41,737 nt of DNA from Nemertoderma westbladi (taxonomy: Eukaryota; Animalia; Xenacoelomorpha), in contig JAUCBJ010001101.1 in the NCBI GenBank assembly GCA_032718475.1, positions 1 to 41,737 on the forward strand, read 5' to 3'. Below, piece after piece: positions 1 to 41,737 of the stretch (positions within the stretch are counted from its first letter, which is position 1; each line of letters starts with the position of its first letter). Position numbers and translations under genes: made by a program. Under the pieces are notes generated by a model. It was not told where the DNA came from and did not search any database. It saw only the letters and a list, made by a program, of their open reading frames with translations.

Positions 1-1
1 C

Positions 2-1423
2 GACCGCAGAAGCGGGAGTCGCCAACGTTGTAGCGGGCGGACGAGGGACAACGGGCGACAAATCATGAATATTTCGCTCGGGGTCCAGGACCTGAACTGT
101 CTCCTGGGCAGTTCTACTGGGCACAGGTAGCTTAGTGCTGTGCAGAGGGAATTTAGAGGTAGCTTCATGGAGCACAGGTGTGTCTATCACCGAAGGGGTG
201 ATTTCAAGAACAGGCCTAATTATTTCAGGCTCATCTGCTATAGTAGGGAGTCTTTCTATTTTAATTATTTGGTCTGTGGGCTCTGTACTACCTAAGTTGG
301 TGTTATTTAGTTGCCGTCTAACAGCTGGAGGCAAATCAGGCAATTTCTGACGGTGGAATGTTCTTTTACGTCTGCTTAGACGAGATCTATTTCCTTTGCC
401 TTCAGTATCGGTGGTATCGCCTTCCTCAGATGATGTATATCCCTGTCTTTTGGGAGTAGATCGATTCATCATCTGCATATTACTAGCTGTTAACTGTTTA
501 CTGAAGTCGTCTTGCTTCTCTTGAAGATTTTCCAACTCCAGTTGGGCGATCTCTTCAGCCGCTCTCCGTTCTGCTTCCGCCACCGCTGCCGCTTTTGCCT
601 CTGCCGCTGCCGCTTTTGCCTCTGCCGCTGCTTCTGCTGCTGCCGCTTTTGCCTCTGCCTCTGCTTCTGCTGCTGCCGCTTTTGCCTCTGCCGCTGCTTC
701 TGCCAAGGTCGCTTTTCTTTCTGCCTCTGCCTCTGCCACTGCTGCTATCTTTCTGTCTTCTATACGTTTTTTCCTTACTTGTTCTTCTTGGTCTCTAGCG
801 ATGCGGAGTTGTTCATCGAATTTAGCTTGGTTCGCCGCTAACCTATCCACATCAATTGCATCCAACACACACTGGGCTCCTTCACTATTAGGGCTAAGTC
901 CATCTAGCTTTCTCCTCAACTCTTCATCTCCCAAAAAACGTTGATAGTCTGACAGATAGATGTCAATGGCATCCCTCTTATGCGGTTTCTCTGCTGTCGC
1001 TTCGCTTTCTTCTTGAGAAAAAGTGGCGTCGGTTGATTCTTCATATGTTGGCCGTTCATCATAAACCGTATCCGCCATCTTCGCTCTGCGTTCGGGCGTC
1101 CGCTCAACAGTATCCGAACTACTGGAGCTGTCGGACCGCTGAGAAATAAGTTCTTGGCTCGCGGGTTGTTGCTGTTCCGCTGCTTCTTGGTCTCGCTTGA
1201 CCTGAGCTCGAGTGCCTATGATAGACCTACGATGTTGGACCAGCCTCGGTTCTGTTATTACTACTGTAGGGATGACCTTGCTTACAGTAGGAGGGGACTT
1301 GGACTTTGGTCTTAGACGCTCTATACTCTTAGCTGAGTCCCAGATCTTTTTAAGACCCTGTCTAACACTCATTCTAGCACTTTCTAAGAGGCTATCTGAC
1401 AATGTTTGTTTTGTGTCAGACAT
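2..1423 (-). CDS. Gag-position ORF (N-terminal part, >=474 aa) of an LTR retrotransposon; continues beyond the window start
   Basis: Manual translation from ATG at 1423 (MSDTKQTLSDSLLESARMSV...) stays open to the window edge, so it has no stop and is missing from the ORF track. It contains an Ala/Glu/Lys repeat (AEAAAEAKAAAEAEAEAKAA) and a Pro/Thr-rich segment. It lies downstream of a 5' LTR on the same strand. No diagnostic Gag motif is visible, so the call rests on position. Confidence 0.7.
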   Translation of the reverse strand, partial: MSDTKQTLSDSLLESARMSVRQGLKKIWDSAKSIERLRPKSKSPPTVSKVIPTVVITEPRLVQHRRSIIGTRAQVKRDQEAAEQQQPASQELISQRSDSSSSSDTVERTPERRAKMADTVYDERPTYEESTDATFSQEESEATAEKPHKRDAIDIYLSDYQRFLGDEELRRKLDGLSPNSEGAQCVLDAIDVDRLAANQAKFDEQLRIARDQEEQVRKKRIEDRKIAAVAEAEAERKATLAEAAAEAKAAAAEAEAEAKAAAAEAAAEAKAAAAEAKAAAVAEAERRAAEEIAQLELENLQEKQDDFSKQLTASNMQMMNRSTPKRQGYTSSEEGDTTDTEGKGNRSRLSRRKRTFHRQKLPDLPPAVRRQLNNTNLGSTEPTDQIIKIERLPTIADEPEIIRPVLEITPSVIDTPVLHEATSKFPLHSTKLPVPSRTAQETVQVLDPERNIHDLSPVVPRPPATTLATPASAV

Positions 1424-1554
1424 GTTTGTTTGATTGTACAGTTGAATGCCTACTGCTATATTACAGTCTAAGCAAGTCTAGTAATTCAGCATTAACTGCT
1501 AGCCTAGTAATTAATTACCGATACTGCTACTCAGTGTAGCGTGATATATATATA

Positions 1555-1820
1555 ATATATTAGAATACCGGTATGCTTATGGTATATAGAAGTATTATTA
1601 CAGACTAGGTTTTTCACAAAATACCGGTATATAATTTTAGCACAAAAATATATATAAATATATAATAGGCCTATCGTGGATACCGGTATGCAGTTTACAC
1701 TTATAGTATATATAAGTATAATTATTAACTAAAATTAATTACAGAATACCGGTATGATTTCAACCTAAAATTTATAGAAATAAATATAATAAGCCTATTG
1801 TAAATACCGGTATGTCAATT
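1555..1820. repeat. Degenerate ~60-bp tandem repeats with an ATACCGGTAT core in the leader
   Basis: ataccggtat recurs at about 1566, 1621, 1680, 1747 and 1805. Confidence 0.7.
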
Positions 1821-2754
1821 ATTTTAGAATAATTGAATTTCTGAATTTTAAGGGTTACTTGGTTACTTTAACTTACTTTATTACCGTTATTTAAGCAGTA
1901 GTCCAACTGATATTGAGACCTAATTGTTGTATGGCAGGCCTACTATTTATAAATCGTTTGAGTTGATTTATAATATATATACCCGTTTTAATGGGTTTTG
2001 TCAATGTTTGAAATAAATGTTATTATTTCTGGGGAGTAATCACTACACAAAGCGGTGCGCTTTCAGTGAAGTGTTACTTATAGGACACTAAAACAAATAA
2101 TTCTAATTTACCTAAGTTACTTAATACTACAAATTACGTACGATTCGGGTTGAGATTACAATCTCTAAATAAACACAAAAATTTACAAAAAACACAAAAT
2201 TCGAAATTTTAGGGTAATTTTACAAGAAGTCTACAAACCAGCCTAACAAAGGGTTAGAAATCTGGTTATTACAACGGACAGGGTACTGCGGTATTTGAAA
2301 ATTATACGTAGTAGTAAATACACTGCGTTGTCCAGATAGGAAAATACCACCGCCTGACGACCTATAGCCGTATCGCTATAGGTACTACGTTATGTATCAC
2401 GGAGTGTCCCTACCTAGAAGTTAATAGAGCTAATCGAACGTGCCTATCAACCACTTTACAACACAAATATAATGCCTACACTAATTACTTTCGGAAAGTA
2501 CTGTACACTAAACCCTAAATTAGGTACAAGTACTTGTATAACAAATAATCAGTAGTTAAAAATACTTGAACAGCTAAAAGAACCACGGTATCTGCTGGAG
2601 TGACCGGTGCACAAAATCACCAGTCTTTACCTTCGCCGAGCAGCCCGTATAGTACCGGGGTTAGTTTAACTATAACGGTATGTATAACAAACACAATTAC
2701 TGTAGGAACAAACTTGGGGAATATGAATGTTGCGAATAATCGCATAAACTCTGA

Positions 2755-3330
2755 ATAATAAATATTACGCTACGCGTACAAACCACTCAAACAAAGTGCA
2801 GACCAAATACTGACAGACTACTATCAAGCCTAAATAAACTACAGGACATGCAGACTCCGAAATGATTAGGTAGTATGCGTTCTAACCCAGTAGTACGACT
2901 TATTCTTTAGATGGGGGTTTACCTTAGCAGCTTTGGCTGCCCCTACTTCCTAACCGTTCTTTATCGGACAGAGGCTCTACACACACTGCAATCCGTTCAG
3001 ACCTAATAACAGCCAGACAACTATCCAGCCCACAAATTATCTAAATAAATATTATACGCTACCTGTACAGACTACACAAACAAAGTACAGACTAAACGAT
3101 GGCAGACTACTCTCAAGCCTAAATAAACTACAGGACATGCAGACTCCGAAATGGTTAGGTAGTATGCGTTCTAACCCAGTAGTACGACTTATTCTTTAGA
3201 TGGGGGTTTACCTTACAGCTTTGGCTGCCCCTACTTCCTAACCGTTCTTTATCGGACAGATGATCTACACACACTGCAATCCGTTCAGACTTAACAACAA
3301 TCAGACAACAGCTCAGCCTACAAATTGTCT
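2755..3330. repeat. ~289-bp tandem duplication in the retrotransposon leader
   Basis: aagcctaaataaactacaggacatgcagactccgaaatg... occurs at 2826 and 3115, with a near-identical core of ~180 bp. Confidence 0.9.
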
Positions 3331-3600
3331 GTACAATCTGATCAGGCTTACACGCCTTCTGTTCAATACTGGCCTACAAACAAATAAAACCGACAGAAAC
3401 AAGTAAAATCTCAATAAAAAACCAGGGCGGCCGTTCCCTGATTAAGTACTAAGACCTACCGGTATATAACTATCAAATTCGAATAATACTAATGCACCTG
3501 TACTGGTGTAGGTACCGGTCCGGATGATCAGGCAGTCAGGCCTACTGGTTACCGGTCGACCGGTACTTTCGACTTTATTGCTTACTGCAATAAAGAAGCA

Positions 3601-3611
3601 ATATCCGTTAT
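3601..3611 (-). promoter_or_regulatory. Primer-binding-site position: ATAACGGATAT (non-TGG), complementary to LTR 4328-4338
   Basis: Immediately 3' of the LTR terminal CA on the minus strand. Exact 11-nt reverse complement of minus-strand ATATCCGTTAT at 4338-4328. Confidence 0.6.
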
Positions 3612-4801
3612 TGTTCGCGCTTTCAGACCTTTGGCAGTTTAACCCGCCAAATTAGGATGTCTTCTAGATAATAAATCGCTTTAGCCTCTAACAAGTATTT
3701 GATTCACTACACTAGTTGAAACCAATCTGTGCGCGATCATTCACCCGTTGGATATACCCGGGAGATTGACTTCGACGGCTTAATCTTATTGCTATGTAAG
3801 CCTAATGTATTATTCGACTGACAGTATTATATAATCTCTGACAATATTATTCACCTTCGGGGAATATTAACAGTTCCTTTAGGACGTGGCGCTCTATCTA
3901 TATAAACAGAGTTATGACTTAAACTACTCACAACGATATGGCTTAGTTACAATTCACATATATGGCGCATTCTTTAGGAAATGCTTCGTTATCAGTCTCA
4001 CTCATACACAATGCTGCACAATACTGCACACTAATCTGCCGATCTTCATTGATTTTAGTCACATATAAAAGGAACACAGACCGACTCATGTAGGGTCTAT
4101 CAAGTAACATTAGATTCACTTCAAACCACTTTAACATAAGTCACAATCGTTATATGTAACCTGTCTCTCTTACCTTCTGTATATCAAGAATATTGGGTTT
4201 TCGGGGTTATTTATCGTTATTCCAAATATAATAATTCATCAACCATATTATGAAGAACCGACAGTAAATAGCAGTATAACAATATAAAAGTATGCACAGG
4301 TTGTTTGATTAGGTATGGTATGTTATGATAACGGATATATGTCCTTATAATTAAGCCTACTAGTGTAAGGCTAAAGCAGAAAAGCACAAAATACTCCAAA
4401 GCCGTTCTTCCTTGGCTCAGGACTGAATGATAACACTGCCCATAATGCATTACGTGATTTCTCGGAAATTTCTGTACAAGAGCCATAAAAACGCTCTGAT
4501 TGGTTGACTGAACTGAGAGATGCCGTAGAACAAAGAAAATCGACACGTATGAATATCAGCTGTTAACCGTCGTCATAGTAACTACTGTTCAAGAGTATCT
4601 CGCTTCTTTTGCGTCACGGAATTGCCATAGAATCATCAACTATGCCTTCCACAGTACACATACGGAAGAAATAGCTCTTAGATCCTCTAAAAACACCGAT
4701 ACAGCAATAATACGGCCTCTTACGCCTATTAAACCAACTACAGAGTATTTTACGGGAAAAATAAGGAAAAATAACCGGGCAATTCAGCAAAAGCTTTTAC
4801 A
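3612..4801 (-). repeat. 5' LTR of element 1 (1190 bp)
   Basis: On the + strand it begins tgttcgcgc and ends caaaagcttttaca. Both termini are shared with 38573-39771. Colinear similarity covers ~3612-4355, and the remainder (putative U3) is diverged. Right flank is aggat (candidate TSD). Confidence 0.85.
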
Positions 4802-5220: not shown

Positions 5221-5936
5221 GGAAATACTAACTGATATCTTGTTAGCCTACTTACAGTACAGTACTGAACTTTACAGTATGTCCGCAATTTACTTCCTCA
5301 TATGGCCATACCAATCATCTGCAGCCACTGTACTCAAACCCTACCCCTACATTACTTGGCTATCTTTATCCACTCGCTACAATGAAACTCATGAAAGGTT
5401 AGTGTAAGCATGAGCCATCACTGCCACTACTACTGTATGTCCAGTATGATTAATTATGCACTCTACAGTATCTACAACTTTTGTCAGGGCAATTTTGACA
5501 CCCATTCAGTAGAGAAATGGACCGGTATTTTTGTAATTAAAATTATCTGGTATTTAGGGTGATTGAGTGGCTTCATATTATTATACTTTTTGTTGGTCAC
5601 AGCTTAATCCATCGTATCCGGTATTTCCTCCATTTCTTCAATACAGTAGCTTAACAGGCTTTGCAAATTAACGTATACTGTATCTCATGTAATTATAAAA
5701 ACTTATCAAACTTACAGTACTTCACCGGGATATGTAAATATATAGTACCCGTTATGTGTGCGTGCACGCACATACTATACAGTATGAAAGCTTAGGGGTA
5801 TCGGGCCATAATTGAGTGTAACCGTATCGGCCACTGTACGTACGTAGCGTACATATACGTAGGTGCACATGTGAATTAAATTTAATTAAAAACTCAACAT
5901 TTTTTCTATTGTACATACTGTATGTGACTCTTGCAG

Positions 5937-7319
5937 ATAAGAGAGATGCTTTTGGCGTTGGTTTAGAAGAGGCAAATGAGATTTCCATGGATACTGGTTA
6001 TGCTCAGGTAGCATCACACAGAAACGAGCAGCTGCAGCGTCAATTTTCGGAATCGGTCAGGAAGGTGGAGTCCACATCATCAGCATGCAGTCCAAATCAA
6101 TCATCTACAGCAGCAGACAGTCTAAAGCGATCATCTACAGCAGCAGACAGCCCAAATCAATCATCTACAGCAGCAGACAGTCTAAAGCGATCATCTACAG
6201 CAGACAGTCCAAAGGGATCATCTACAGCAGCAGACAGTCTAAAGCGATTGTCTACAGTAGCAGTCAGTCCAAAGGGATCATCTGCAGCAGCAGTCAGTCT
6301 AAAGCGATCGTCAACAACAGCCGCAGTCAGTCCAAAAAGATCCTCAACAACAGCAATCAGTCTAAAGGGATCTTCTACAACAGCTGTCAGTCCAAAGCGA
6401 TCGTCTACAGTAGCAGTCAGCCCAAAGGGATCGTCTACAGCAGCAGTCTGCCCAAAGGGATCATCTACAACAGCAGTCAGTCCAAAGGGATCATCTACAG
6501 CAGCAGTCAGTCCAAAGCGATCATCTACAGCAGCAGTCAGTCCAAAGGGATCGTCTACAGCAGCAGTCAATCCACAGGGATCGTCTACAGCAGCAATCAA
6601 TCCAAAGGGATCGTCTCCAGCAGCAGTCTGCCCAAAGGGATCATCTACAACAGCAGTCAGTCCAAAGGGGTCGTCTACAGCAGCAGTCAGTCCAAAGGGA
6701 TCGTCTACAGCAGCAATCAGTACAAAGGGATCGTCTACAGCAGCAGTCTGTCCATATCAATCATCTACAACAGCAGTCAGTCCAAAGGGATCATCTACAG
6801 CAGCAGTCAGTCCAAAGCGATCATCTACAGCAGCAGTCAGTCCAAAGGGATCGTCTACAGCAGCAATCAGTACAAAGGGATCGTCTACAGCAGCAGTCAG
6901 TCCAAAAGGATCATCTACAGCAGCAGTCTGCCCAAAGGGATCATCTACAACAGCTGTCAGTCCAAAGCGATTGTCTACAGCAGCAGTCAGTCCAAAGGGA
7001 TCGTCTACAACAGCAGTCTGCCCAAGGGGATCATCTACAGCAGCAGTCAGTCCAAAGCGATCATCTACAGCAGCAATCAGTACAAAGGGATCGTCTACAG
7101 CAGCAGTCAGTCCAAAAGGATCATATACAGCAGCAGTCTGCCCAAAGCGATCATCTACAGCAGCAGTCAGTCCAAAGGGATCGTCTACAGCAGCAGTCAG
7201 TCCAAAGGGGTCGTCTACAGCAGCAATCAATCCAAAGGGATCGTCCAGCATTAGATTGTCAATGGGCAGTGCAGTGAAGTCCTTTACATCGGTAACTGAA
7301 AGTCAGGAGCCTAGTGAAG
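5937..7319 (+). CDS. Putative internal coding exon: Ser/Ala/Thr-rich decapeptide repeat (SSTAAVSPKG/R)
   Basis: Lies within ORF 5909-7324. It has an acceptor-like cttgcag|A at 5936/5937 and a donor-like GAAG|GTTAGA at 7319/7320. Length is 1383 nt (divisible by 3, phase 1-1). Non-repetitive flanks are also open. An alternative is a single-exon ORF from the ATG near 5987. Confidence 0.45.
6088..7250. repeat. 30-bp minisatellite (~38 copies), consensus tccaaagggatcgtctacagcagcagtcag
   Basis: Direct 30-bp periodicity; the few length variants (27 and 33 bp) keep the frame. Confidence 0.97.
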
Positions 7320-8799
7320 GTTAGATTCAGGAATAGGATATAACCATGAATAATGTGTTTCATCTTTAATATCTGTGTAAACCATAAATTATAGTAATAC
7401 CATCAAGTCAACCATCTTTCACGCAAATTATTTACTATATTATATTGGCCTATGTACAGTAGCTATTGAAATGATGTTGTTATTAATGTTGTTATGTTAC
7501 ATACAGTATATCTCAAATCGCAATAAAATATAAGTAAATTATTTTACTCTAACATTTTGCATTTGCTTTACATATAAATTCTGTCCATTACAAAAAAATA
7601 TATAATGCAATTAAAGACTTCCGTATGATTTTGGGGGGTAAATGAGAGCCTTCCAGATGATATGGATACCGAAAAAGAATCGTCGACGTTGACTTAGCTA
7701 CTCAAGATTCAGAACTTCGTATACCTGTAGCTGGTCCTATAAATCTGGTCCTACATCCTTCCATATTTTTTTCCTCTGCTTAACACTTTTCACTCATTAC
7801 TTGTGTGAAGAATGATTCATAGAAGGAATCTGAAAAGTTTTTTACAAGACGTAATTATTATTTTTGGTGCATTTAATTCGTTTATTTAGTTATTCTACCA
7901 AAACAGTAAACTTAACGATGGTTTATAGGAAACTGTTAACATTTTATATATGTACAGAAACAGCAAGATCTCTTTTTCTTCTCGAGATATGAATGTCTGT
8001 CTGTCCGTCAAAAAAAATAGGAAAACACGTTATCTGCCTACAAATTCCCAACAGGGATTTTCCTTATCGGTAATAACATAATACATACAGTACTAGGAGC
8101 CCTTAAGAAAACTATAATCATTATTTCCTGATTGATAATAAACTGGGTACCTAGCAACGCCATCAGCTGGTTTCAAAATGCCATATGTACATAATTGTAC
8201 ATATCAACATCATTGTCAAACATCATCAATATCAACATTGTCAAATGTACTTAATTAGCGCAGATAGGGACTATTACTCATGATTGATTTTAAAGGAGTT
8301 ATAAGGATGCAGTAAACCCTCTACAGTACTCAAACACCGGTCAGCCGGGGGTGTAATCGCTACGCTGACAACCGACAACCAACGCCGACAACCATTATTA
8401 AAGCAAATTAATGTTAATTGTCGATTGAGGGAGGAAATGGAACAGGACACGGTGGAAAGTTATCGGCGTAGCGTTTACACCGGTCAGCCGGTACATTGCA
8501 TTTGTATAACGCTCAGATTGGAATCCGCTTTCATTTTATTAATACAGAACCTATATCTACAACCCTACAGCAACCATTTCCTCTTGGTTCGCTTTCATTG
8601 TACTAAAACGATGCCTAATCGTCTGTACTTGTGTACAGTTGTATATTGTATTGTGAATTGGAAATTAAAGTGACCTTTCTCTGCAACTCTCCACTACAGA
8701 GGATGCGTAATTGTTGTTTGTATATAAACAAATAGCGAACTGGTTTGTTAATTTTTTGGACCGGTTCTTTGGCCTATGAAGTGGTTAAATAAGTTACTA

Positions 8800-9080
8800 A
8801 GAATTCCTACGAATTACTACGAATTTATATTTAGCGCCTCCTAGCGGAGGACCATGTAAATGCACGACGCCAAAATTCTGAAAACTTTATAAACTTTTGA
8901 CATACAGTACTACTTGTGTACCACGTTTGGTATAATTTCATCAACGATTCGTAGTTAGTGTACTATTTACTGTAATAGCATTCAAAGATTAGACGGACCA
9001 ACCGACCAACGACAGGCAGACCGACAGGTAGAGATTGGTACCCGTATTCTAATCTCGCTCACTTTCGTGGCTCGCCCCAC
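8800..9080 (+). mobile_element. Possible non-autonomous Helitron/Helentron-like fragment
   Basis: Has gac(a/g)gac-type microsatellite-like tracts. It ends in ttcgtggctcgcccca, whose reverse complement recurs at ~28302-28318. Confidence 0.3.
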
Positions 9081-11179
9081 AGTGTTAGTCAATTTAACGG
9101 CTGCTTGTCAGTTCTGTCACTGGCCCTGTGTTACCGAATAGTGACTCTACAGTAGTTAGTTGTTTTAAGGGCAACCACTATTTAATCCAGCTGTTGGTTG
9201 GTGGTTGGCGTGTAAGGTACCCTGTTTAAAACCAATCAGGAAATAGTGATGATTCTAGCTTTTTTAAGGGCTCCTATATTATTATTAATTGATAAGAAGC
9301 GGGGTATATAACATTACAGTATACATAATCCAAATTCAAATAATACAACAATTATTGTCCAAGAAAATATCAGAATATCACCTGAGAAAAACCTCATTTC
9401 AAAACAGATTATCATGTATATACTGTAAACCTAGGAAAAACTGTCCAACATAACTGTCCAAAATAACATCTAACCAAAGTAAAATTGTAAAACCTACGAT
9501 AAATATTAACCGATAATACTTTCCAACGTTCGTATCGCAATCCAACTTTCGTAATCCGAAATATAAATCAAAAGTACGAAGCACTTCCTTCACCATCAAT
9601 AACGACTAAAAGCAGTTCATTGACTAGTAATATAGTGCTGTGAGAAAAGTTATGGTTCTGCTAATTTTAAAATATCGAATGCCGCTTCTGCTACTGCGCT
9701 CTGTTGCGAAGAAGACAGAAACTGAGTAAGAAAGGAAAAGTTTAGCATGGCGAACTTTGGCGATTGACGAACACTAGTAATTAACTCACACGAGGCTATT
9801 ACGTGATCTTCTGTAAACTCGATAAAGACAGACAGAAATCAATTTTATTTTAAAATATAAAAGACAGACAGACAAACAGACGGGTCTTTATTATTGCCAT
9901 TAAAACCACCTAATTCAATCGCCTTCTTATTGGTTGAAAATTCAAATATTTCAATCGTCCAATCAGAGACTGCTTGAAATTAGGATGTTCTAACGCCTCC
10001 TACCGGTCGGTAGCTGCTGAGCAAACTAATCAGCTGAGGTGTATTTTCTAATGTGGTGAATCATGGCCTACTAAACTGTACTACGTGTAGTAGGCAATGT
10101 GGTGAATCGATTAATAGTACATAGTACTGCTGTACTGCAGTAGGCCTAATTACTGAATTATAAGCATCTAAGGTGTATATAACTCTAAATTCTAGAATTT
10201 AAGGATTTGAACTCAAATACTGGGCCTCTTTAGCATAAACACTGCCGCTACTCCAGTACAGCAGTAGGCCTACTCCGTGTACCGGGATGCCGTGTACTGC
10301 AGTTCTGCAGTAGGCCTACTGCATGCACTGATCAGCTGGTCAGCTCGTACCTGCGTACTGCTGTACCGGTGCACGTACAGCAGTACACTGGCTGACTGGT
10401 ACAGGCCCTATTGAAAAGTTTTACATGTACGCCGAACACGTTCGGCGCAGCACTAGAACTTGCGCTGGGAGCTGGCGCAGAAATGTGCTACGCCGGGCAA
10501 TGAGCCGGAAGGGTCGGCGCAGAGATGTGCTACGCCGGCGTAGCCGGCAGAGAACTGATAATGATAGAGATGCTGCGCTCGGCGCAGCAGGCGTCGAAAT
10601 ATTCCCGGCGTCGTCACTGCAGAAATTGACCCGGCGCCGGAGCAGGAATCAGCCCAGCACACCCGGTGTACATAGGCCTATTTGCCTGGCGCAGAAATCA
10701 TCCGAACCTAGCACCAGGCAGACAGTGTGACTGAGACAGCACGACAGCAGATATGCGTTCATCAGACCAACACTGCAACAGCACAGCAACACAATAACAA
10801 CTGGCCATGGCTGCATGCAGGAGGCAGAATGGGAATTCACGCTAGCTGATTGAAACTGGTCATTTATTTACGTATTTAACCTTATGCTGTTATGAAGTAG
10901 GCATGTAGGCTATCACAGTTCCAGCTATCAGCTGATCAATCAGTTTATTTATTTACATATTGCTGTATTGTACTGTATAAGATATATTTATAATATATTA
11001 TATTATTTGGATGGAGACACCGCTGTCATAGAAGCGTATAAATAAAACTGCACATAATAAAACAGGATAAAGTTGAACAGTGAATAAAACAAAAACGACT
11101 TATACACTATTGGCAATTATACACTACCGGCAATGGCACTATTGATAATGAAACAATTTATTACTGACACATAGGCCTT

Positions 11180-15286: not shown

Positions 15287-15393
15287 ACTGTAATAAAGTA
15301 GTTTTTGACTAGGCCTATATAGGCTGTTGGATATATATATATGTAAAAAGGGTCATTCAAGTCACCCTGTTTTACAGTTGGCCTACCGGTATA

Positions 15394-18300
15394 ATGGATG
15401 AGGTTGGAAACGATGTAATGAAGAGGATTCGTGAAATGACAGCACCGCCTATAGACCCACAGGCAAATGAAGTTCGTAATAGGAGACCCAGTCAGACTGT
15501 TGGAGCTAAAGTTATATACAAGAACTCCAAAGACAGAAAAGCTGTATGTAACGGCTGTAACGAGGGAGGGGAGTTATTGTGCTGCACACGGTGTCCGGTT
15601 GCGTACCATTTTGGTTGTTGTGACCCGCCAATCACGGAACAGGACGCCCCGTCTCTAGGGGAATGGCTTTGTAAGAAGTGCACCAGCTCTCTCCCACCCT
15701 CCGCTCGACGTCAGATGCCGGTATTTAAAGTGAAGCTGTTGGAGCCGTCGGTGGCGAAGAAACTGAAAAAAAGACCTGTTCCACCGCGGCACAGTAGGCC
15801 GACTAGGCCTATATCAAATAAAACGAAATCAAAGAGAGTTACAATGAAAGTTAAACCGACTAAAGACGATTCAAATTCTAAGAAAAAGACAACCCACAAT
15901 AAATCACCTTTGACAAATCGCGAAGGTTCTGTAAAAAAAGTTTCTAAGACATCCCCTATTTTGAATAAAAAATGTCTATCTTCCTCGGGGAAGTCCACCA
16001 GACCTCTAAGTGACAAAGGTAGCACGTCCAAGAAGGCTACATTGGTCAGCAAACATAACAAGCTGAATAAGTCCCTTTCCAGAGCGCATAGTGGTAAAAA
16101 ATCAACTAAGAGTATAAAATGTCCCTCAGTTCGCGCTTCCGTTCAGTTGAAGCGGGCTATAAAGGAGTCCGCAAAACGGCGCTCGGAGAAAAATCGCGCT
16201 ATTGTTAAAGAAAAAACTGAAAGGAAAACAAAGAAGGTAAAACCGCCCTCCACCATTCCTAATGTTTCTGTCAAGAAGTCGAATACCGGTAATACGGATT
16301 CCCTTATATCGAGTAACAGAAGTACCGGTACCGGTAGCTCTAAAACACCCAAAACTAAACGTACCGATATTGAATCGGGAGGAAAGTTTTTGAAAGAGTT
16401 GAAAGTAAATATTTTTAATGAGAAACCTGAAAATAAAAGTGATTCAGTTCCTGTCGCTATGGATTTAATATCCAATCACTCATCGTCGTCGAAGGGTCAG
16501 TCCAAGGTATCCCCTGCGTCGGTGGACAAGAATGTGATAGTCGGGGAGCGGTTGTCGATGAGGATGGCCCTGAAACAGTCGCTGAAGGAGACCAAGGAAG
16601 ATCACTGGAAGTCCGTTAGAACGAAAGTTAAAGATCCTCTATTCGGTAGGAAGATACCGCTGTTCGAGGCGGAGCCGTTGATAGATCCGCAGCTGTTAGC
16701 GAAACTCGTGTTGGAGAAACGGGCGGAAACAGGGGACCACATCGATGACGTCGAGATCGCGGATAAATTAGTTCCCAGAAGGAACAAGCGGTTGAGTTCG
16801 GATGTGGGCGCGGCCTCGTCGGATGTTCCTGCAAAACGTCGTGTTCAAAGCGAAAGCAACTTGTTCAAGGCCGATCTCGATTCCATTGTTAAAGACGTAG
16901 ATAGCGTTGTAGAGGCTGATGAAGTAAAGATGATCTCTATCAGGGAGCGTAAGTTTACTAAAGCTGCTAAGAAATCCTTTATGGGTTACCATGATAGTGA
17001 GTTAGATGCGGACAGGAAGTCGGACAGCGACGAGAGCGGGGCCACGCTGGTTCTGTCGCCGGACACGCATGTGTTGAAACCGGTGTCGGAACTGCGGCAG
17101 GAGACGCCGGTGGTTGAGTGGTTGGACGCCGAGGTTGAGGTGGATGGGTCGGTGACGGATGAGTTGGACGAGGATGTGGTGGACGAGGTTGAGGAGACCG
17201 TTGACGAGGTCATTGTGGAGGATACATCAGATCTGTTGGCGGGCGGCTGCTACTACCTACCCAGTCCACCGCCCGCGGCCTCGGAGACTACCGAAGTTGC
17301 GGAACCTTCTCCTTCCCGGATTCAGTCGACGATGGACGTTCTATTGAGAGCCGCGAGTCTGACCAACCCAACCGAGTACTCCCTGCCCGCTGGCGCGCTC
17401 TCATTGGTCAACCTTCCGTCCACGTCGATCGGCACTAAACAACCGGAGCCGCGCCGCACCATCGAACCAATCAACGGCGTCGTCCCTCAGCCGCCGCGGT
17501 TCTGCTTCGTCTGCAGCGCCACCTGCCGTCTCGCTGCGCTCATTGAGTGCGACTTCTGCCCGCTGGTCTACCACCTGGACTGCCTGACCCCCCCGCTGAC
17601 CGTGCCGCCGGTGGGCCAGTGGCTGTGCCCCGCCCATCCCGACCACGGGGTTCCTGAGGCCACCTCGATCCGCTACTCCGAGCGGCTCAAGGCCCATTCC
17701 AGTCTGCGGGAACCCGTCGACCAACACGCCGTCAAACTCAGTTTCATTAAGCAGGCGGCGCGCGCCGCGCAGCACTGGCCCCCTCACGGCGCCACCCAGT
17801 TCGTGGCGCGCCGGCGCACCTCGGTGCCCCCCGCAGTGGCGGCCATGTACGAGCGCCCCCTGCCCCCCACGACGGCCCCCTCGGGGGGGTCGGAGCCTTC
17901 CGCGTATCGCAACGCGCTACTCACGGACGACGAGACGTCCTGGTTGCGATCCGTTATACAGATACAGTCGGAGTTCGTCCGCTCGGAATCCCGGGAGGCG
18001 TTGCAGCGGGTCCTACCGGGTGCGAGTCGGGCCAGCGAGTGCGAGGAGACTCGAGATGATCCGGACGGCAAGAAGTACCCGACGAGGAAGAAAGTGATGA
18101 CGGCCAAGATGTTGGAGCATCGAGCGACGTTGAAACAACGATCCGCAGTGGCGCAGTCGCCGCCGAGGAAGGCGGTTAACGTAGTGGCGCCGTTGCCGCA
18201 GTCGGCAAGCCGCGCCACCCCGACCGACAGACAACGTCGGGTCACCCTGGACGAGGCCCGGAGGTTTCTCGAGGAACTCAACCTACAGATGGACACGACT

Positions 18301-18936
18301 CGTCTTCCCGATATTTATTCATTAGACCCGGGGATTCGGGATTTATTGGCGATGCAGCGACTGCGACAGATGTTCCCGTTAGCGGCGAGACCTGCCAGCG
18401 CCGAGGAACCACTCCAGCCACCAGATACCCCGCTCGGTAGGGCGGTACTCGTTCACACCGACGGCACTCGCTTCTCTATGACGTCATCCACGCTGGCTAT
18501 CGGGAACTCGGATGAGTCGGATGTTAACCTGTCCGGAATCTCCGGTTGCAACCGAGTCTCCCCGGAACACGCCGTTATTGTCTACGATAAACACTCCAAC
18601 TCATTCGAGTTGATCAACTACAGTGAGTTCGGTACCGTGGTAGACAGTGTCGCCTACGCGTGCGGTCTGCCGTCCCGTTGCGGTCCCGTCTTGGGTGACA
18701 CCACTAGCGGGGGCTACTGGAAACCAATAGTAAACCCGCAGGGCGTTGCTTGTGGTTGCGGAGACTCAGATATTCCAGGGATGGGTTGGGAGGGGCCCGC
18801 GAATCTACGCAACGGGAGTCGCATTCTTATTGGCTGCCACAGTCTGCAGTTCGTACCCTCCGTGGGTGGGAGCAGTGTGAGCGGTAGCCAATCACATACA
18901 GTTGTGTCAAACAATACGATTGGAAATAGTAATTGA
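15394..18936 (+). CDS. PHF12: PHD finger protein 12 (Pf1) homologue, Sin3/HDAC complex subunit, 1180 aa, single coding exon
   Basis: N-terminal MKRIREMTAPP; PHD1 CNGCNEGGELLCCTRCPVAYHFGCCDPP...GEWLCKKC; MRG-binding-like LLRAASLTNPTEYSLP; PHD2 CFVC...CDFCPLVYHLDCLTPP...WLCPAH; LLAMQRLRQMFP helix; C-terminal FHA-like domain (LAIGNS...CNRVSPEHAVIVYD...LINYSEFGTVVD...GWEGPANLRNGS). Confidence 0.92.
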   Translation: MDEVGNDVMKRIREMTAPPIDPQANEVRNRRPSQTVGAKVIYKNSKDRKAVCNGCNEGGELLCCTRCPVAYHFGCCDPPITEQDAPSLGEWLCKKCTSSLPPSARRQMPVFKVKLLEPSVAKKLKKRPVPPRHSRPTRPISNKTKSKRVTMKVKPTKDDSNSKKKTTHNKSPLTNREGSVKKVSKTSPILNKKCLSSSGKSTRPLSDKGSTSKKATLVSKHNKLNKSLSRAHSGKKSTKSIKCPSVRASVQLKRAIKESAKRRSEKNRAIVKEKTERKTKKVKPPSTIPNVSVKKSNTGNTDSLISSNRSTGTGSSKTPKTKRTDIESGGKFLKELKVNIFNEKPENKSDSVPVAMDLISNHSSSSKGQSKVSPASVDKNVIVGERLSMRMALKQSLKETKEDHWKSVRTKVKDPLFGRKIPLFEAEPLIDPQLLAKLVLEKRAETGDHIDDVEIADKLVPRRNKRLSSDVGAASSDVPAKRRVQSESNLFKADLDSIVKDVDSVVEADEVKMISIRERKFTKAAKKSFMGYHDSELDADRKSDSDESGATLVLSPDTHVLKPVSELRQETPVVEWLDAEVEVDGSVTDELDEDVVDEVEETVDEVIVEDTSDLLAGGCYYLPSPPPAASETTEVAEPSPSRIQSTMDVLLRAASLTNPTEYSLPAGALSLVNLPSTSIGTKQPEPRRTIEPINGVVPQPPRFCFVCSATCRLAALIECDFCPLVYHLDCLTPPLTVPPVGQWLCPAHPDHGVPEATSIRYSERLKAHSSLREPVDQHAVKLSFIKQAARAAQHWPPHGATQFVARRRTSVPPAVAAMYERPLPPTTAPSGGSEPSAYRNALLTDDETSWLRSVIQIQSEFVRSESREALQRVLPGASRASECEETRDDPDGKKYPTRKKVMTAKMLEHRATLKQRSAVAQSPPRKAVNVVAPLPQSASRATPTDRQRRVTLDEARRFLEELNLQMDTTRLPDIYSLDPGIRDLLAMQRLRQMFPLAARPASAEEPLQPPDTPLGRAVLVHTDGTRFSMTSSTLAIGNSDESDVNLSGISGCNRVSPEHAVIVYDKHSNSFELINYSEFGTVVDSVAYACGLPSRCGPVLGDTTSGGYWKPIVNPQGVACGCGDSDIPGMGWEGPANLRNGSRILIGCHSLQFVPSVGGSSVSGSQSHTVVSNNTIGNSN

Positions 18937-19548: not shown

Positions 19549-21431
19549 TGAAACATTCAGTTACGTTCTGTAACATTCTGTTACATTCAGTTGCGTTCTG
19601 TAATATTATGTTACATTCAGTTGCGTTATGTAACATTATGTTACATTCAGTTGCGTTCTGTAACATTATGTTACATTCTGTTGCGTTCTGTAACATTATG
19701 TTACATTCTGTTGCGTTCTGTAACATTATGTTACATTCAGTTGCGTTCTGTAACATTATGTTACATTCAGTTGCGTTCTGTATCATTATGTTACGTTCTG
19801 TAACATTATGTTACATTCTGTTGCGTTCTGAAACATTATGTTACATTCTGTTGCGTTCTGTAACATTCTGTTTCATTCAGTTGCGTTCTGTAACATTATG
19901 TTACATTCTGTTGCGTTCTGTAACATTATGTTACATTCAGTTACGTTCTGTAACATTCTGTTACATTCAGTTGCGTTCTGTAATATTATGTTACATTCAG
20001 TTGCGTTATGTAACATTATGTTACATTCAGTTGCGTTCTGTAACATTATGTTACATTCAGTTACGTTCTGTTACATTCTGTTGCGTTCTGAAACATTATG
20101 TTACATTCTGTTGCGTTCTGTAACATTCTGTTACATTCAGTTGCGTTCTGTAATATTATGTTACATTCAGTTGCGTTATGTAACATTATGTTACATTCAG
20201 TTGCGTTCTGTAACATTATGTTACATTCAGTTGCGTTCTGTAACATTATGTTACATTCAGTTGCGTTCTGTATCATTATGTTACGTTCTGTAACATTATG
20301 TTACATTCTGTTGCGTTCTGAAACATTGTTACATTCTGTTGCGTTCTGTAACATTCTGTTTCATTCAGTTGCGTTCTGTAACATTATGTTACATTCTGTT
20401 GCGTTCTGTAACATTATGTTACATTCTGTTGCGTTCTGTAACATTATGTTACATTATGTTGCGTTCTGTAACATTCTGTTACATTCAGTTGCGTTCTGTA
20501 ACATTATGTTACATTCAGTTGCGTTCTGTAACATTATGTTACATTCAGTTGCGTTCTGTAACATTATGTTACATTCAGTTGCGTTCTGTATCATTATGTT
20601 ACATTCTGTTGCGTTCTGTAACATTATGTTACATTCTGTTGCGTTCTGTAACATTCTGTTGCGTTCTGTAACATTATGTTACATTATGTTGCGTTCTGTA
20701 ACATTCTGTTACATTCAGTTGCGTTCTGTAACATTCTGTTACATTCAGTTGCGTTCTGTAACATTATGTTACATTCAGTTGCGTTCTGTGACATTATGTT
20801 ACATTCAGTTGCGTTCTGTATCATTATGTTACATTCTGTTGCGTTCTGTAACATTATGTTACATTCTGTTGCGTTCTGTAACATTATGTTACATTCTGTT
20901 GCGTTCTGTAACATTATGTTACATTCTGTTGCGTTCTGTAATATTCAGTTGCGTTCTGTAACATTCAGTTGCGTTCTGTAACATTATGTTACATTCTGTT
21001 GCGTTCTGTAACATTATGTTGCGTTCTGTAACATTCTGTTACATTCAGTTGCGTTCTGTAACATTATGTTACATTCAGTTGCGTTCTGTAACATTATGTT
21101 ACATTCAGTTGCGTTCTGTAACATTATGTTACATTCAGTTGCGTTCTGTAACATTATGTTACATTCTGTTGCGTTCTGTAACATTATGTTACATTCTGTT
21201 GCGTTCTGTAACATTCTGTTACATTCAGTTGCGTTCTGGAACATTATGTTACATTCAGTTGCGTTCTGGAACATTATGTTACATTCAGTTGCGTTCTGTA
21301 ACATTATGTTACATTCAGTTGCGTTCTGTAACATTATATTACATTCAGTTGCGTTCTGTAACATTATGTTACATTCAGTTGCGTTATGTAACATTATGTT
21401 ACATTCAGTTGCGTTCTGTAACATTCTGTTT
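19549..21431. repeat. 30-bp satellite of three related 10-bp subunits (ttacattcag-ttgcgttctg-taacattatg)
   Basis: Direct periodicity; subunits are occasionally dropped or duplicated. Confidence 0.97.
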
Positions 21432-24004: not shown

Positions 24005-25423
24005 GGCTTCCTGGAAAAGATGCAACAGCTCTATAACCAATCGTCACCATTGGCGCAACAGCTCTATAACCAATCGTCACCATTGGCGCAACAACCTAGG
24101 ATTGGTTTATTCATTCCACTCTAATTCCATTTGCTCGTACATTCTTTTGCGTTCTATAAGATTATATTTCTGTAACGCTGATGGCGCGACGAACACAGAA
24201 CAAAAGCAAAAAAATACCGGATGTAGTCTGACAGCACCAAAGGCAGCCCAGAAGACAGGTCGTTCAGCCGATTGCTTTGCTACCCACTGCTAGCCCTAAA
24301 ACTTATGATATGAGCCGACTTTTTTTAATAGTTCTTCTGCTACTGAACTTTGTTGTAACGGAATACAGAGATTAGGCCTACTAATGGATATTCTTTCACT
24401 ATCACTATCTGCACTATAGATAGAGCCTTATTGGACTATTAGGTGTACCGGCTGACCGGTAATCGACGATGTAGAATCTGTTTCTGGCATTAATTTGTAT
24501 ACAATCAGACAGTATTGATAGATACTGGAGATACTGTATGTGCCTATTACAATAAACGAAAGTCAATATAAAAACCGGTTAGACTTTTGCGAGTAATCAT
24601 TCTTTTTTTTTTTTTGCGTCGACTTTCCCTGGAAGCCTTTTGATTCCGTCTTGCGTCGAAAGACCACCCCCCCCCTCCTTTTTTTGCTGTACCGGTACTT
24701 TACAATGTAAAGTAAACTTATCTGTGTTGAAACAGTAGACACAAACGTGGTGGAACCATCGTACAGTGATCCGTGATCGGATTGCTGCAATAATTTCCTC
24801 GGGAATCCCATATGCTGCAAGTATATGCCGAATAATACGTGGTCGTGGTCGGGAGACTGAAAAAAATCGAAGGCCTTGAAGAAGTCAACAAAGATAATAC
24901 CAAGACGTTATGTCTTTTTTGTTTATAACTCTTCGATTTATCCTTCTAAGCGCCAGAATAGCTAGGCATGCATATACTGTAGTAGCAGTATAGGCTAGCC
25001 TACAGTATATGCATTAGCGCTGCCTGGCATTATTAGCACGGTAGGCCCTATAGATCGTAACAGCTCTTTTGTATTGTTATTGGCAGGTTTTAGCTCGGTT
25101 TACCACTGTGTACGTACCACTGGATTGTTATACCTCGCACCTCGGTATAGTTTGGTATCTCTTTTAGAAAGTACCTTGCTTTATTACATACAGTAGTTTA
25201 GACAGCAGGATTAATATTCTGTTATAATACCTTGCACTGTCAGACTGTAGTTTTGGCTATTCATTGCTTAGTTGCGCCATCGGCGCTACAGAAATATAAT
25301 GTTATAGAATGTACAAGCCAATGTAATTAGAGTGGAATGAATAAACCAATCCTAGGTTGTTGCGCTGTTGCGCCAATGCTAACGATTGGTTATAGAGAGC
25401 TGTTGCGTGTTTTCCAGGAAGCC
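24005..25423. mobile_element. Non-autonomous TIR element (~120-bp TIRs) just upstream of BROX
   Basis: ggcttcctggaaaa..gcaacagctctataaccaatcgt...aacctaggattggtttattcattccactctaatt at ~24005-24126 is inverted at ~25326-25423. No ORF, and the TSD is unclear. Confidence 0.8.
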
Positions 25424-27007: not shown

Positions 27008-27980
27008 GCTGGTAACTTTATAGACTGGGGCATTATCTACCCTAATAATGTATTCGCATTAATTTATTTATATCCCTATTGTGCTCCTTTATTTTTAATG
27101 TATAATAATGAGGGTTTATCGGAACAGCGATTAATATTCTATACGCGAAATATTGAAACTTTTGTAGTTTCCGTTTTAATATTTAATTAATTACACAATT
27201 ATTATTATTCTTCACCCAATTAACTCCCTTCTGGATTCACTGTGTTTCGTAAATTAATAGAAAATTCCCGAATTTTCTGAGGAGATTGGGGTTTTAGGTT
27301 GGGTTTCTAACTACAACATTGTATCGGTTACCCTGTATTGTCCGGCACCGGCCCACATAGTCGGAGTATGTGAGGAGTTCTATGCGAGGTGACTTTCTCA
27401 CAGTTCATTGGAAATACATTCTTATTATGTAAAACGTGAGTTTCTACCGCGTTAGCCGTGTAAACAAAATATATGTGTCAAACAATGGTAGACTAAGTAG
27501 AATATCTCCGAATTACTACATATAATAACGATTAGGTTGGGTATGTATAATTACGATACAACTCGATGTTGCGTTGGTTGATTGTTAAAAACTTATACAT
27601 ACAAACTGCATGTTATATAATACTTTATTTAATATTTAAATACGCGTATTATTAACCGTAATACTAATTAAAGCTAATTAATAACTTTACCCACATGTAT
27701 CACTAATGATTTTAAAACTGCACATCTAATATAAACAAATAGTGAACTCAATAAAGCCAATAATGGTGTTACGTAATTTATTCTAAAATTGAATTAATTT
27801 AATTGATTTTATTTGTGGAGATAAAAAATATTTGATTAAGATTTTTCATAAAATTTGGTATCATCGTTCAAAATAAATTTAGAAAATTATTCACGCGTTT
27901 AGAAGTTATAAACTTGTTGTTCCCCAACAACGTCATAAACAAAAGGGGTTTATTGAAATATCAGTTAACCACTAGAAATA

Positions 27981-29183: not shown

Positions 29184-29340
29184 TAGAAATAGCTATATAA
29201 AGAGAGAATATGCTAAATTAAGTTCTTAGCAGTTCTATAATAATCATATAGTAGTAACACTATGATAAATAAAATGAAATTGAATTGCAATGTTGTTGTG
29301 TGACAACATCATAAAATAGCATAATTACTCATCTTTGCGG

Positions 29341-38572: not shown

Positions 38573-39771
38573 TGTTCGCGCTTTTGAAGACCTTTAGCAG
38601 TTTAACCTGCCAAAATTTATATGTCTTTTAGTTAATTAAAACACCTTTAGCATACGACAATATTTTATGCTAATACACAAAACATTAGCCGAAGTCAGCC
38701 CATGCGCGATCATTCACCCGATGGATCTACACCCGGGAGGCTGAATTCGGCTGCTTAAATTGTATTATTGCAGTGTAAGGTTGCAGTGTATACTTACTGT
38801 ATTATTCGATAGATCGTTAATAATTAATCTCTGACAGATATTATTGGCTTTCGGGAAATATTAACAGTTCCTTTAGGACGTGGCGCTTTATCTATTTAAA
38901 CAGAACTAAGACTTATACTAAAACGCAACGATACCGCTTATGATTAAAGTATAAAGCGTATTCTTTAGGAAATACTTTGTTACCAATCACAATCATACAC
39001 ACTATTCTGCCGACCGTCAGTATATTTGATCACACATAAAGAGAGCAGTAATTGACTCATGTAGTGTCTGCTAAATAACATTAGATTCAATACACACCAC
39101 ATTGATATAAATCGCAATTGTTATGTATAGCCGGTCTCTCTAACCTGTAGTGTATCAAGAAAATTGGGAAATTTGGGTGATTTATCCGTATTATCCAAAG
39201 AGCAATATTTCCATCAACAAATAGGTACAATTAATAACTGACAGTAAATAACAGTACAAACAATATGATTAATAGTAGTTAAGATTGATTAGTTAAGTAT
39301 GAGTAGGTTTGTTAGGTAACAGTTTATACTTTCGATAATTTAAGCAGTTTTACTAGAGTTCTTCCCAAAAAGCCGGTGTTATGGCGAAAATGGGAACACA
39401 ACAACAGAATCATATAAAATCATATGACTACTACCACTATACGAGTATACCAAAAACTCTTATTCCACGAAGCCCCGTTCAACACAGAGGATGAGCATAG
39501 AGATAGGAAATTCAGTTCAGTAGCGCTGGGATAGGTCGAAATCAACGCCTACGCAAATTCTATTGGCCGACACGAACAGCAAGGCTAAGGCAACCTCTCT
39601 AAGCTAGTTGGCCGATTAAACTGAGCCCAGATATCTCCGTACAGCACATCAGCCAATAAGCTGGTAGCTTGCACTATTTTAGTTATAAATCCCTTTGAGA
39701 GTATTCTAGCGACTGGGGGGGAACTGGCCAGCAAAGGCAAACGTATCAGTTATCCCACAAAAGCTTTTACA
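38573..39771 (-). repeat. 3' LTR of element 2 (1199 bp)
   Basis: Same termini as 3612-4801. It is preceded on the minus strand by purine-rich GGGAGCGG (PPT position, 39772-39779). Left flank cctcc is satellite sequence (candidate 5-bp TSD). Confidence 0.88.
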
Positions 39772-39849
39772 CCGCTCCCAGAAAATGGGATTTAAGTCTA
39801 TAAAATATACAAAATCACAGTTTCTAAAATATAAAAATACTCTAAACAG

Positions 39850-40350
39850 TTAGTCTTTCTTGCGCGGACGGCGTTTACGCAGTTTTTTAAAGCTAGCAAG
39901 AGTCCTTTTCTCTTTGGGGCGAGCCACTTTACGAGGAGGGCTATAACTCCTGGGTGAAGGGTGCAATATGATTGCATCAGAAGGTATGGGATTGCGATCG
40001 GTATATCCGCCGGTCGAAGTACCGGGTTGATTGACCTCAACGTCCGGGGAGAGGGGTCTAACGGCTTTGAGAGCTCGTTTCAAGACAGCCGCTCTTACGG
40101 GTCCTGTACGAGTGGTCTGCACGAGGGCCGTGGGTGGACCATAGGTAGTTAGAAACTTCCTTGGTTTAATGGTTCTTTCCAACTCGCGTTCGCGGGCTCG
40201 ATACTCGTAAGGCCGTCGATATACTTCCTGTAACTCGGGGTGTGAGTTGACAAATAAGTCTCCATAGGCAGGGTCTTGACGGATAAAGTTTATTAAGTTG
40301 TAATGTAAGTTACAGCGAAACGACGGGATAGCAACTGCATAAGCTGCCAA
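39850..40350 (-). CDS. Uncharacterised basic ORF or ORF fragment between integrase and PPT
   Basis: 166 open codons with coding-like GC content, ending ...KKLRKRRPRKKD about 80 nt before the LTR. The true start is unclear and it overlaps the integrase end in another frame. Confidence 0.45.
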   Translation of the reverse strand: MAAYAVAIPSFRCNLHYNLINFIRQDPAYGDLFVNSHPELQEVYRRPYEYRARERELERTIKPRKFLTTYGPPTALVQTTRTGPVRAAVLKRALKAVRPLSPDVEVNQPGTSTGGYTDRNPIPSDAIILHPSPRSYSPPRKVARPKEKRTLASFKKLRKRRPRKKD

Positions 40351-41195
40351 GTTCGACGACAGTATTCATCTCCATCGGCAATCTCGGATTGTGGGAGCAT
40401 GGCTACAGGTTTCTTAAGTAGGAAGTGCGCGGGTGTTAGCGCTTCCAGGGAGTCGATACTCGATGAGACTGGCATAAGCGGTCTCTCGTTAAGATAGGCA
40501 GCGATTTCTTCCATTAACGTCCGTAGAAGTTCGTCGGTGAGATATGCGCGGCACGGCACTATAAAGTGAAATGCGGTCTTGACACTTCGAATTAATCTCT
40601 CCCAACTTCCTCCCCACCAAGGGGCGTCGGCGGCGTTAAAGGTCCAGCTAGACGCCGTTATCCGTAGCTGGTCATCCACCTGTCTTTGATTCCAGTCCTT
40701 TACGTAAGCCTGGATTTCGTTGTTGGCACCAATGAAGTTCGTTCCCTTATCGGATCTCATCGTATTGCTAGTGCCGAAACGAGCGATCTGTCGTCGTAGA
40801 CATAAGACGAAGCTGTTAGTAGATAGATCGTTCACCATATCGAGATGGATAGCTCTACAAGTCATGCAGACAAAGATTACACACCATCTCTTGATTATAG
40901 TTCTAGCACGATATACTTCAATAGGGCCAAATAAATCCACACCAGTATTAGTAAAGGGTGGTTCATAAAAGCTTACTCGTTCCCTAGGTAATTCTGCCTC
41001 TCGCTGTGTTAAAGGCCTACTGAATACTTTCCTACAAGGTATGCAGTTCCTAAGAACTTGATTCAGAGCTCTACGTGGTTTATGAAAATAATAGCGGGTT
41101 CGAATCTCGCTAAGAACTCGTTCTCTCACTTGCGTCCTTCTGGGCTCCTCTGATAACTCCGAGGCGCACCCATGAGGCGGACGCTGTCCCACCAC
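40293..41195 (-). CDS. BEL/Pao-type DDE integrase (truncated at both ends)
   Basis: CIPCRK, LPRERV..PFTNTGVDLFGP (D), CMTCRAIHLD, RSDKGTNFIGA (D), APWWGGSWERLIRSVK (E), LNERPL, LTPAHFL. The His pair of the HHCC finger and the usual C-terminal domain are absent. Confidence 0.9.
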   Translation of the reverse strand: MVGQRPPHGCASELSEEPRRTQVRERVLSEIRTRYYFHKPRRALNQVLRNCIPCRKVFSRPLTQREAELPRERVSFYEPPFTNTGVDLFGPIEVYRARTIIKRWCVIFVCMTCRAIHLDMVNDLSTNSFVLCLRRQIARFGTSNTMRSDKGTNFIGANNEIQAYVKDWNQRQVDDQLRITASSWTFNAADAPWWGGSWERLIRSVKTAFHFIVPCRAYLTDELLRTLMEEIAAYLNERPLMPVSSSIDSLEALTPAHFLLKKPVAMLPQSEIADGDEYCRRTWQLMQLLSRRFAVTYITT

Positions 41196-41737
41196 CCCTG
41201 GGGCCAGTCCGACTCCGTTTTTATCAGACTGGGCCGGAGGGTAGCCCGATGCTTCCCGGGTTCACTTTTCAATCCCCCGATCACACCGGCACAGCTCGTC
41301 GTGTAGCCGACTAGGCTTACGTTGAATCGCCTACCTTTGACTTACTGTGGCCTGACTGTACATTGAGCCAACTCAGAGAGTCAACCGGCGGGTGGACCAG
41401 TCGATAGCGATCGAGCATCAAGGTCGCCCTTGAGCCAAACCGACGGTCTTGTCCCAAGTGGGCTTGCGCTACCCAACATGGAATATTGACCGTTTTCACC
41501 CGCCTCGCCGGCAGTATTTGAAAACGCAATACTGTCTGTAGCTAAAAAGCTACTGAACAAGTCACCACTTACCAGTCACTGTACACGTGTACTCAACAGA
41601 TGTTCGATAATCAAGTACTCAAAAGGTAAACACAAATCGGACACATACCATGCACACACAGAAGACATAATCGGGAAAGACAAAATCGGTGACAAAATCA
41701 GAGGGGACAAAATTGTATCGACTAATAAAGAGTCGAG

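Follow-up and report, generated by a model that had tools for sequence, protein, structure and literature searches.

The window analysed here is a 41,737-nucleotide stretch of Nemertoderma westbladi DNA (contig JAUCBJ010001101.1), and two retroelement ends, A and B, lie on its minus strand (Table 1), each element being cut by an end of the window so that its other end falls outside. Both long terminal repeats (LTRs) have the TG...CA termini and conserved att ends of LTR retroelements, the two LTRs being identical over 14 nt at their starts and over 12 nt at their ends, and their boundaries are well established. Read on the minus strand, element A runs from its LTR (4801-3612) through a 2177-nt leader into an open reading frame (ORF) that starts at 1423, and element B runs from an integrase block (41129-40317) through a second open frame (40365-39850) and a purine-rich tract into its LTR. 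The gag-like ORF of A includes an EAKAAA-rich coiled-coil stretch and has no homolog in any database searched. No reverse transcriptase or RNase H gene, and no tRNA gene, was found within the window.

The remainder of the window holds repeats and two host-like genes. LTR B ends directly on a satellite array with a 31-bp unit (34383-38561), and further arrays occupy 29347-33818 (35 bp) and 19553-21430 (30 bp). Three MITE-like elements, 1.2-1.4 kb long and bounded by terminal inverted repeats, lie at 24005-25423, 27979-29185 and 8094-9276, and open frames at 5822-7324 (+) cross a coding-like 30-bp tandem repeat (6081-7242). A BROX ORF (25721-27004, +) is intronless, its best listed matches, in diverse animals, being at most 49% identical over the full length, and a PHF12-like gene (15313-18936, +) lies in one uninterrupted ORF; uninterrupted ORFs for these two genes are unusual for animals and may reflect either an intron-poor lineage or retrocopies.

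Table 1. Retroelement features of the window and predicted elements of the conserved R/U5 RNA (A and B, the two elements)
Feature	Position	Strand	Remarks or basis
gag-like ORF of A	2..1423	-	474 aa, leaves the window; gag identity by position only
Leader of A, between PBS and gag-like ORF	1424..3600	-	2177 nt, almost AUG-free
Primer-binding site (PBS) of A	3601..3611	-	Flush with LTR end, no TGG start
LTR of A	3612..4801	-	1190 bp, TG...CA, 5' of internal region
Conserved R/U5 RNA region of A	3612..4327	-	Identity to B; contig-piece recruitment
3' structured domain adjoining PBS	3612..3790	-	RNAalifold z -4.7, 0/100 shuffles
Hairpin (c)	3630..3651	-	8 bp
Helix (a), enclosing CCCG/CGGG hairpin and invariant 14-nt loop	3714..3777	-	Compensatory changes
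Invariant loop segment, predicted partner of the LTR's last 9 nt (3620-3612)	3731..3739	-	8/9 pairs
Identical 31-nt block	3863..3893 (= 38857-38887)	-	Permutation test; contig-depth peak
Hairpin (b)	3967..3984	-	One pair changed on both sides
Long irregular stem, 5' part 4317-4243 with ~4052-3993	3993..4317	-	Shuffle test
Long interrupted helix, 4158-4136 with 4089-4060	4060..4158	-	Alternative to stem (d)
Predicted self-primer of A, putative R start	4328..4338	-	Exact complement of 3611-3601
Conserved R/U5 RNA region of B	38573..39315	-	Alignment to A
Predicted self-primer segment of B	39316..39328	-	Complement in loose ends of X1, X5
LTR of B	38573..39771	-	1199 bp, 3' LTR, abutting 31-bp satellite
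Purine-rich tract, PPT-like, short	39772..39779	-	Directly before LTR B
Bel/Pao-type integrase block	40317..41129	-	Protein matches and profile

The region of interest is the 3' 60% of both ~1.2-kb LTRs (3612-4338 in A; 38573-39328, minus strand, in B), and these are the only copies that blastn detects in the window. Their proposed homology is real, since the two R/U5 regions align at 71.5% identity over 719 nt (E 4e-98), and the region ends at 4338, with the predicted primer segment and putative start of R, rather than at 4355 as the initial annotation had it. Global identity between A and B is 73.5% in R/U5 and 54% in U3, which is unalignable (shuffled sequences give 51%). A nearly invariant block had also been pointed out, and it is borne out by 31 identical nucleotides, a run as long as this being found in 52 of 5000 permutations; the best 50-column identity window was reached by 95 of 5000, and the count of identical runs of at least 10 nt is ordinary (816 of 5000). 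Neither AAUAAA nor AUUAAA occurs in the R/U5 of either copy, and no stop-free stretch longer than 65 aa was found there.

The A region was compared at 80% likeness with four public sequencing runs, one of them labelled as a different organism, and recruited 12,372, 2,682, 155 and 69 contig pieces from them. In runs X1 and X3 the R/U5 of A draws more contig pieces than U3. Summed contig depth in X1, which is not a copy number, amounts to 0.72-2.7 million over 3588-4292, compared with 0.06-0.59 million for U3 and only 0.16-0.24 million over 3400-3540; the profile of X3 is like that of X1, and X4 is without a clear drop. The peak of summed depth coincides with the invariant block (bin 3870-3916) in X1, X3 and X5. 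This depth pattern is read as the trace of many related families that have more in common in R/U5 than in U3. Outside the sequencing runs compared, no homolog of the R/U5 region was found: a 20-nt core pattern gave 0 matches in viral contigs and 0 in metagenome contigs, and the 120 + 3 loci returned by a 17-nt pattern were rejected as chance because in all 123 the match stopped at 28 nt or less and the other core block was absent.

The region had been described as a conserved structured RNA of some 730 nt, a description that holds in full for conservation and, because only one segment of four is significant, for structure only in the 3' ~190 nt. Folding of the whole region (20 shuffles each) gave z scores of -2.3 and -1.6 on the minus strand and of +0.6 and +0.5 on the plus strand. 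RNAalifold, applied to a two-sequence alignment that trims 3 nt of B's primer segment and is poor at its 5' end, gave -1.5, -0.3, -1.3 and -4.7 for consecutive segments of the minus strand read 5' to 3', with no significant folding signal in the three segments other than the 3' ~190 nt, a domain that scores -2.4 on the plus strand. Among single-sequence windows of 120 nt on the minus strand, only 2 of 21 reached z -2. Shared helices that contain double changes were counted four times, giving 5, 1, 3 and 3 where the null means are 2.1, 0.2, 0.7 and 0.4; 3, 12, 0 and 0 of 60 shuffles reached these values. The 3' ~190 nt can be regarded as a well-supported predicted fold and the remainder as conserved with suggestive folding, and it is likely that these other ~500 conserved nucleotides fold too.

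Individual helices, scored pair by pair in the alignment of A against B (two sequences), fared differently. Compensatory changes in the 3' domain are established for helix (a), where both partners differ in 3 of the 15 aligned pairs, one partner differs in 2, 7 are identical and 3 are unpaired in one copy (one of these positions is private to copy A). Its 3' arm could also pair with an invariant GGUCU near the LTR end (each copy preserves 5 of 6 pairs), and this predicted alternative hints at a switch. Hairpin (c) behaves as had been proposed, with two one-sided changes that remain paired, as G-U, only on the minus strand, and in hairpin (b) the claimed compensatory change is present, although it concerns a single pair in a 6-bp stem. 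Stem (d) is doubtful, since the stem of A keeps 2 of 5 pairs in B (the version of B keeps 4 of 5 in A, including two wobbles), and it was set aside as first proposed for a better-kept pairing within 4158-4060. Here 4148-4136 with 4089-4079 gives 11/11 pairs in both copies, and the long interrupted helix as a whole gives 20/20 pairs in both, 2 of them changed on both sides and 4 on one. Two variants that are common, at 4154-4155, disrupt this helix unless a partner change exists among the 153 rows beyond those listed, and under the same proviso the 11 listed variant sites in the region comprise 4 that keep or gain pairing, 2 that break the helix at 4158-4150 and 5 that lie outside the modelled helices. 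The best partner of the 5' part of the region falls at a homologous place in A and B (3/100 and 0/100 shuffles), and the registers of this long irregular stem differ between the two. An invariant 5-bp pairing, GUGGU/GCCAC, was also seen and is too short to weigh.

The 5' edge of the region is tied to its 3' edge by a short complementarity. Segment 4338-4328 of A is an exact 11-nt complement of 3611-3601, as in 1 of 2000 shuffles; the predicted pair probability is 0.94 and the duplex stops precisely at the edge of the LTR. The aligned segment of B differs from that of A at 5 of 11 positions, and, B's 5' LTR lying outside the window, it was predicted that the complement of 39328-39316 should follow B-type LTR ends. 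Among the 22 of 44 loose-end rows listed, 8 lie at the B-type LTR end, and 2 of these 8 complement B's own segment at 13/13 positions (including the aligned base at 38572), one from X1 with 18 contigs and an agreement of 0.74, the other from X5 with one contig and another organism. The chance of such a match is ~6e-8 at one place; the B primer and the loose ends are unphased with respect to each other. Two more of the 8 listed rows (X1, X5) have a related but different PBS-like sequence whose matching primer was not seen among them, and the other 4 are unrelated or mixed, as expected for the flanks of 3' or solo LTRs. A 5' segment complementary to the PBS, as in Tf1, is established in A and for B-type ends, each in its family's own sequence. 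The PBS of an LTR element is copied afresh from the primer in every cycle, so that a PBS which tracks the 5' segment of each family points to that segment as the primer.

The reading we favour, with a probability of roughly 0.62, is that the RNA of this region is a Tf1-like self-priming scaffold, much enlarged; confidence in the predicted primer/PBS pairing itself is higher than in the full mechanism. A self-priming scaffold on the minus strand had been suggested in the initial annotation, and what stands of this is the 3' domain and the family-specific match of primer and PBS, not the whole 730 nt. In this mechanism, transcription would begin at or near 4338, and the first 11-13 bases of the element would pair with the PBS and then be cut off to prime reverse transcription. 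The primer/PBS duplex would stack on a second duplex, formed by 3739-3731 with the last 9 nt of the LTR, which would bring the bond after the primer to a helix junction, where the RNase H of the element could cut, so that the 3'-OH left behind would be flush with the end of the LTR. The 3' domain would then serve as an enlarged 'pretzel' scaffold, and the remaining ~500 conserved nucleotides would likely serve a second purpose, in translation entry or packaging.

For the second, inner duplex, the closest complement to the final 9 nt of the LTR is loop segment 3739-3731, which lies inside helix (a), and in two tests that are not independent this was equalled in 43 and 54 of 2000 shuffles (about 2-3%). 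Since it is invariant, it gains no support from covariation, and since it crosses helix (a), it would have to be a pseudoknot or an alternative second state; the free fold of A prefers it and that of B is without it. If formed, it would extend the primer/PBS helix on the side of the PBS strand. A candidate third duplex, of the leader with 3802-3778 and at the homologous position in B, does not stand out from shuffles (29/100 do as well) and is beaten by a local hairpin in A.

The Tf1 structure is less than 100 nt long, unlike the present one, where ~720 nt separate primer and PBS. Tf1 requires three duplexes for self-priming, a central one that contains the PBS and one on either side of it that involves LTR sequence (10.1101/2022.12.06.519325), and its RNase H cut falls between nucleotides 11 and 12 (PMC7175516); self-priming is reported for Tf1/sushi and, as predictions, for the gypsy element Tcn1 and for TAR copia (PMC6317226). 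Like Tf1/sushi, the element has 11 nt in its 5' part that complement a PBS directly behind the CA of the LTR, and this PBS is not of the tRNA type; a flanking duplex of the LTR end with an internal LTR segment may form as well. In contrast to Tf1, its predicted inner duplex crosses a covarying helix and its outer duplex is unsupported, and, unlike in the Tf1/sushi group (chromoviruses of the Metaviridae), the linked integrase is of the Bel/Pao and not the chromoviral type, the integrase search having given no match to the chromodomain that marks Ty3/gypsy chromodomain integrases. On balance, the element probably works like a Tf1 self-priming leader, yet is not a member of Tf1/sushi.

The link to Bel/Pao comes from element B only. 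Its integrase gave 173 matches, the top ones 42-46% identical, and nearly all of those listed carry the Bel/Pao Pfam domains PF05380/PF18701. A profile built from 73 of these proteins matched with E 4e-108, and matched only 41129-40317; there was no match to it in 41130-41737, 39772-40316 or 1-3600, the gag-like ORF of A included, and no relative of the integrase was found in viral contigs. The LTRs can be called Bel/Pao-linked because the integrase block matches Bel/Pao, though its flanks and the ORF of A do not. The frame that holds the integrase (39850-41261, -) is without a recognisable first zinc-finger half and without most of DUF5641, and the second open frame after it encodes 171 aa with a basic tail and has no match found. 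True Bel/Pao ancestry of the element is reasonably likely, a captured integrase block accounting for what likelihood is left.

According to the ICTV profile, members of the Belpaoviridae use an 18-nt PBS for host tRNA-Arg or tRNA-Gly (PMC8742986). The element resembles them in the placement of the integrase block before a PPT-like tract and LTR, in LTRs whose length of 1.19-1.20 kb reaches the upper limit of the 0.2-1.2 kb range, and in its animal host; it differs from them in the integrase flanks and gag-like ORF just described and in its PBS, which lacks a TGG start and, in a comparison that covered the element itself, complements the element's own segment. In C. elegans, Cer7 has arrived at a different solution, encoding its own tRNA-like primer. 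No case of Bel/Pao self-priming was found in the literature searched; subscription papers and Repbase entries, which lie beyond it, may hold a precedent. Primers go unmentioned in the accessible part of PMC3118150.

What the conserved nucleotides beyond the scaffold would do is addressed by two further readings, the first of which concerns translation. The leader of A has 4 ATGs where 34 are expected (0 of 300 shuffles), ATG being its most depleted trinucleotide, and the ratio of observed to expected ATG in 22 control windows is 0.60-1.09, which points to a very long leader that would be scanned by ribosomes. R/U5, whereas the leader is nearly devoid of them, keeps 11 ATGs in A, with upstream ORFs in R/U5 of up to 64 codons. 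An AUG-poor leader next to an AUG-bearing R/U5 means that ribosomes probably scan the leader and not the whole of R/U5, which they could bypass by internal entry, shunting or splicing, or by a downstream transcription start as in Tf2 (PMC5341516). Much of the region might accordingly be a translation device (an IRES, a shunt or a spliced-out segment) leading past upstream AUGs, a proposal compatible with self-priming at the ends of the region. Donor-like AG|GT sites stand at homologous places (4173 and 39144, -), and an acceptor-like site at 3585 (-) lies just after the PBS of A; however, none of the 8 listed joints corresponds to an intron with its donor at 4173, ATGs are mildly depleted in R/U5 as well (11 where 20 are expected, and 10 where 16 are), and a Tf2-like downstream start would explain the leader without any RNA device. 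A translation device is put forward only tentatively.

Slightly less likely, and still doubtful, is that the additional domains act as signals for packaging, dimerisation or export, to be recognised by element proteins common to the families. Retroviral 5' leaders carry signals of this type and are tRNA-primed and shorter, and the region here offers single-stranded blocks that are invariant, a CCUAAA loop that recurs, and predicted loops with GC palindromes. In its conserved structured R/U5 beside a fast-evolving U3 it is like these leaders, with their R/U5 stem-loops, U5-IR and U5-leader stems, and long R regions are described as keeping stem-loop conservation (PMC3601003); unlike them, it matches no Rfam retroviral family. 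An equally good candidate lies elsewhere, in the leader of A, where a 290-nt unit is tandemly duplicated (2757-3042 and 3044-3330, 90% identical) and the first unit forms a long predicted hairpin on the minus strand (z -3.0, 2/200 shuffles). This hairpin may be regarded as a packaging-signal candidate; the leader, duplication included, has no Rfam match.

It is improbable that no large functional RNA exists at all, in which case U3 would have been swapped by recombination, R/U5 would merely be younger, and the conserved blocks would be DNA motifs such as the att site or an internal promoter. Such an account fits the two-sequence comparison with three of its four segments insignificant, the ordinary number of identical runs of at least 10 nt, and the double use of the last 12 nt as an integrase att end, but it is at odds with the strand-asymmetric folding, with the G-U-compatible and double changes in the 3' domain, and with a longest run and best window that beat permutation.

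The initial suggestion that the RNA matches no recognised ribozyme agrees with an Rfam 15 search, which gave three chance-level hits in all, none in the region of A and one, a weak CRISPR-repeat hit, in that of B. Likenesses to group I R/S motifs, HDV J4/2 and rRNA, judged by eye, were discarded as not kept between the copies or out of order. Cleavage by small ribozymes yields a cyclic phosphate end, which is unable to prime. Least likely of all, and a long shot, is that a Bel/Pao-linked lineage swapped its host tRNA for a self-primer whose ~730-nt RNA is a new large ribozyme cutting after nucleotide 11-13, which would replace the RNase H step of Tf1 and leave a 3'-OH primer already annealed at the LTR end: a size far above what a pretzel needs, invariant unpaired blocks with a predicted pseudoknot directly at the scissile junction, and a C after the predicted cut in both A and B would suit it, but the catalytic RNA that had been proposed found no support, Rfam giving no match at E up to 10 beyond chance snoRNA/CRISPR hits, no group I, group II, RNase P or HDV core being recognisable by eye, and a protein cut sufficing in Tf1.

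If the Bel/Pao integrase link holds, the self-priming scaffold would bring tRNA-free priming to a third superfamily of LTR elements, on a scaffold several times the size of that of Tf1. As the region is common to many diverged families of one genome, deep covariation analysis and tests of cleavage and translation are within easy reach, and a 700-nt structured RNA that is absent from Rfam would be worth solving whatever its function.
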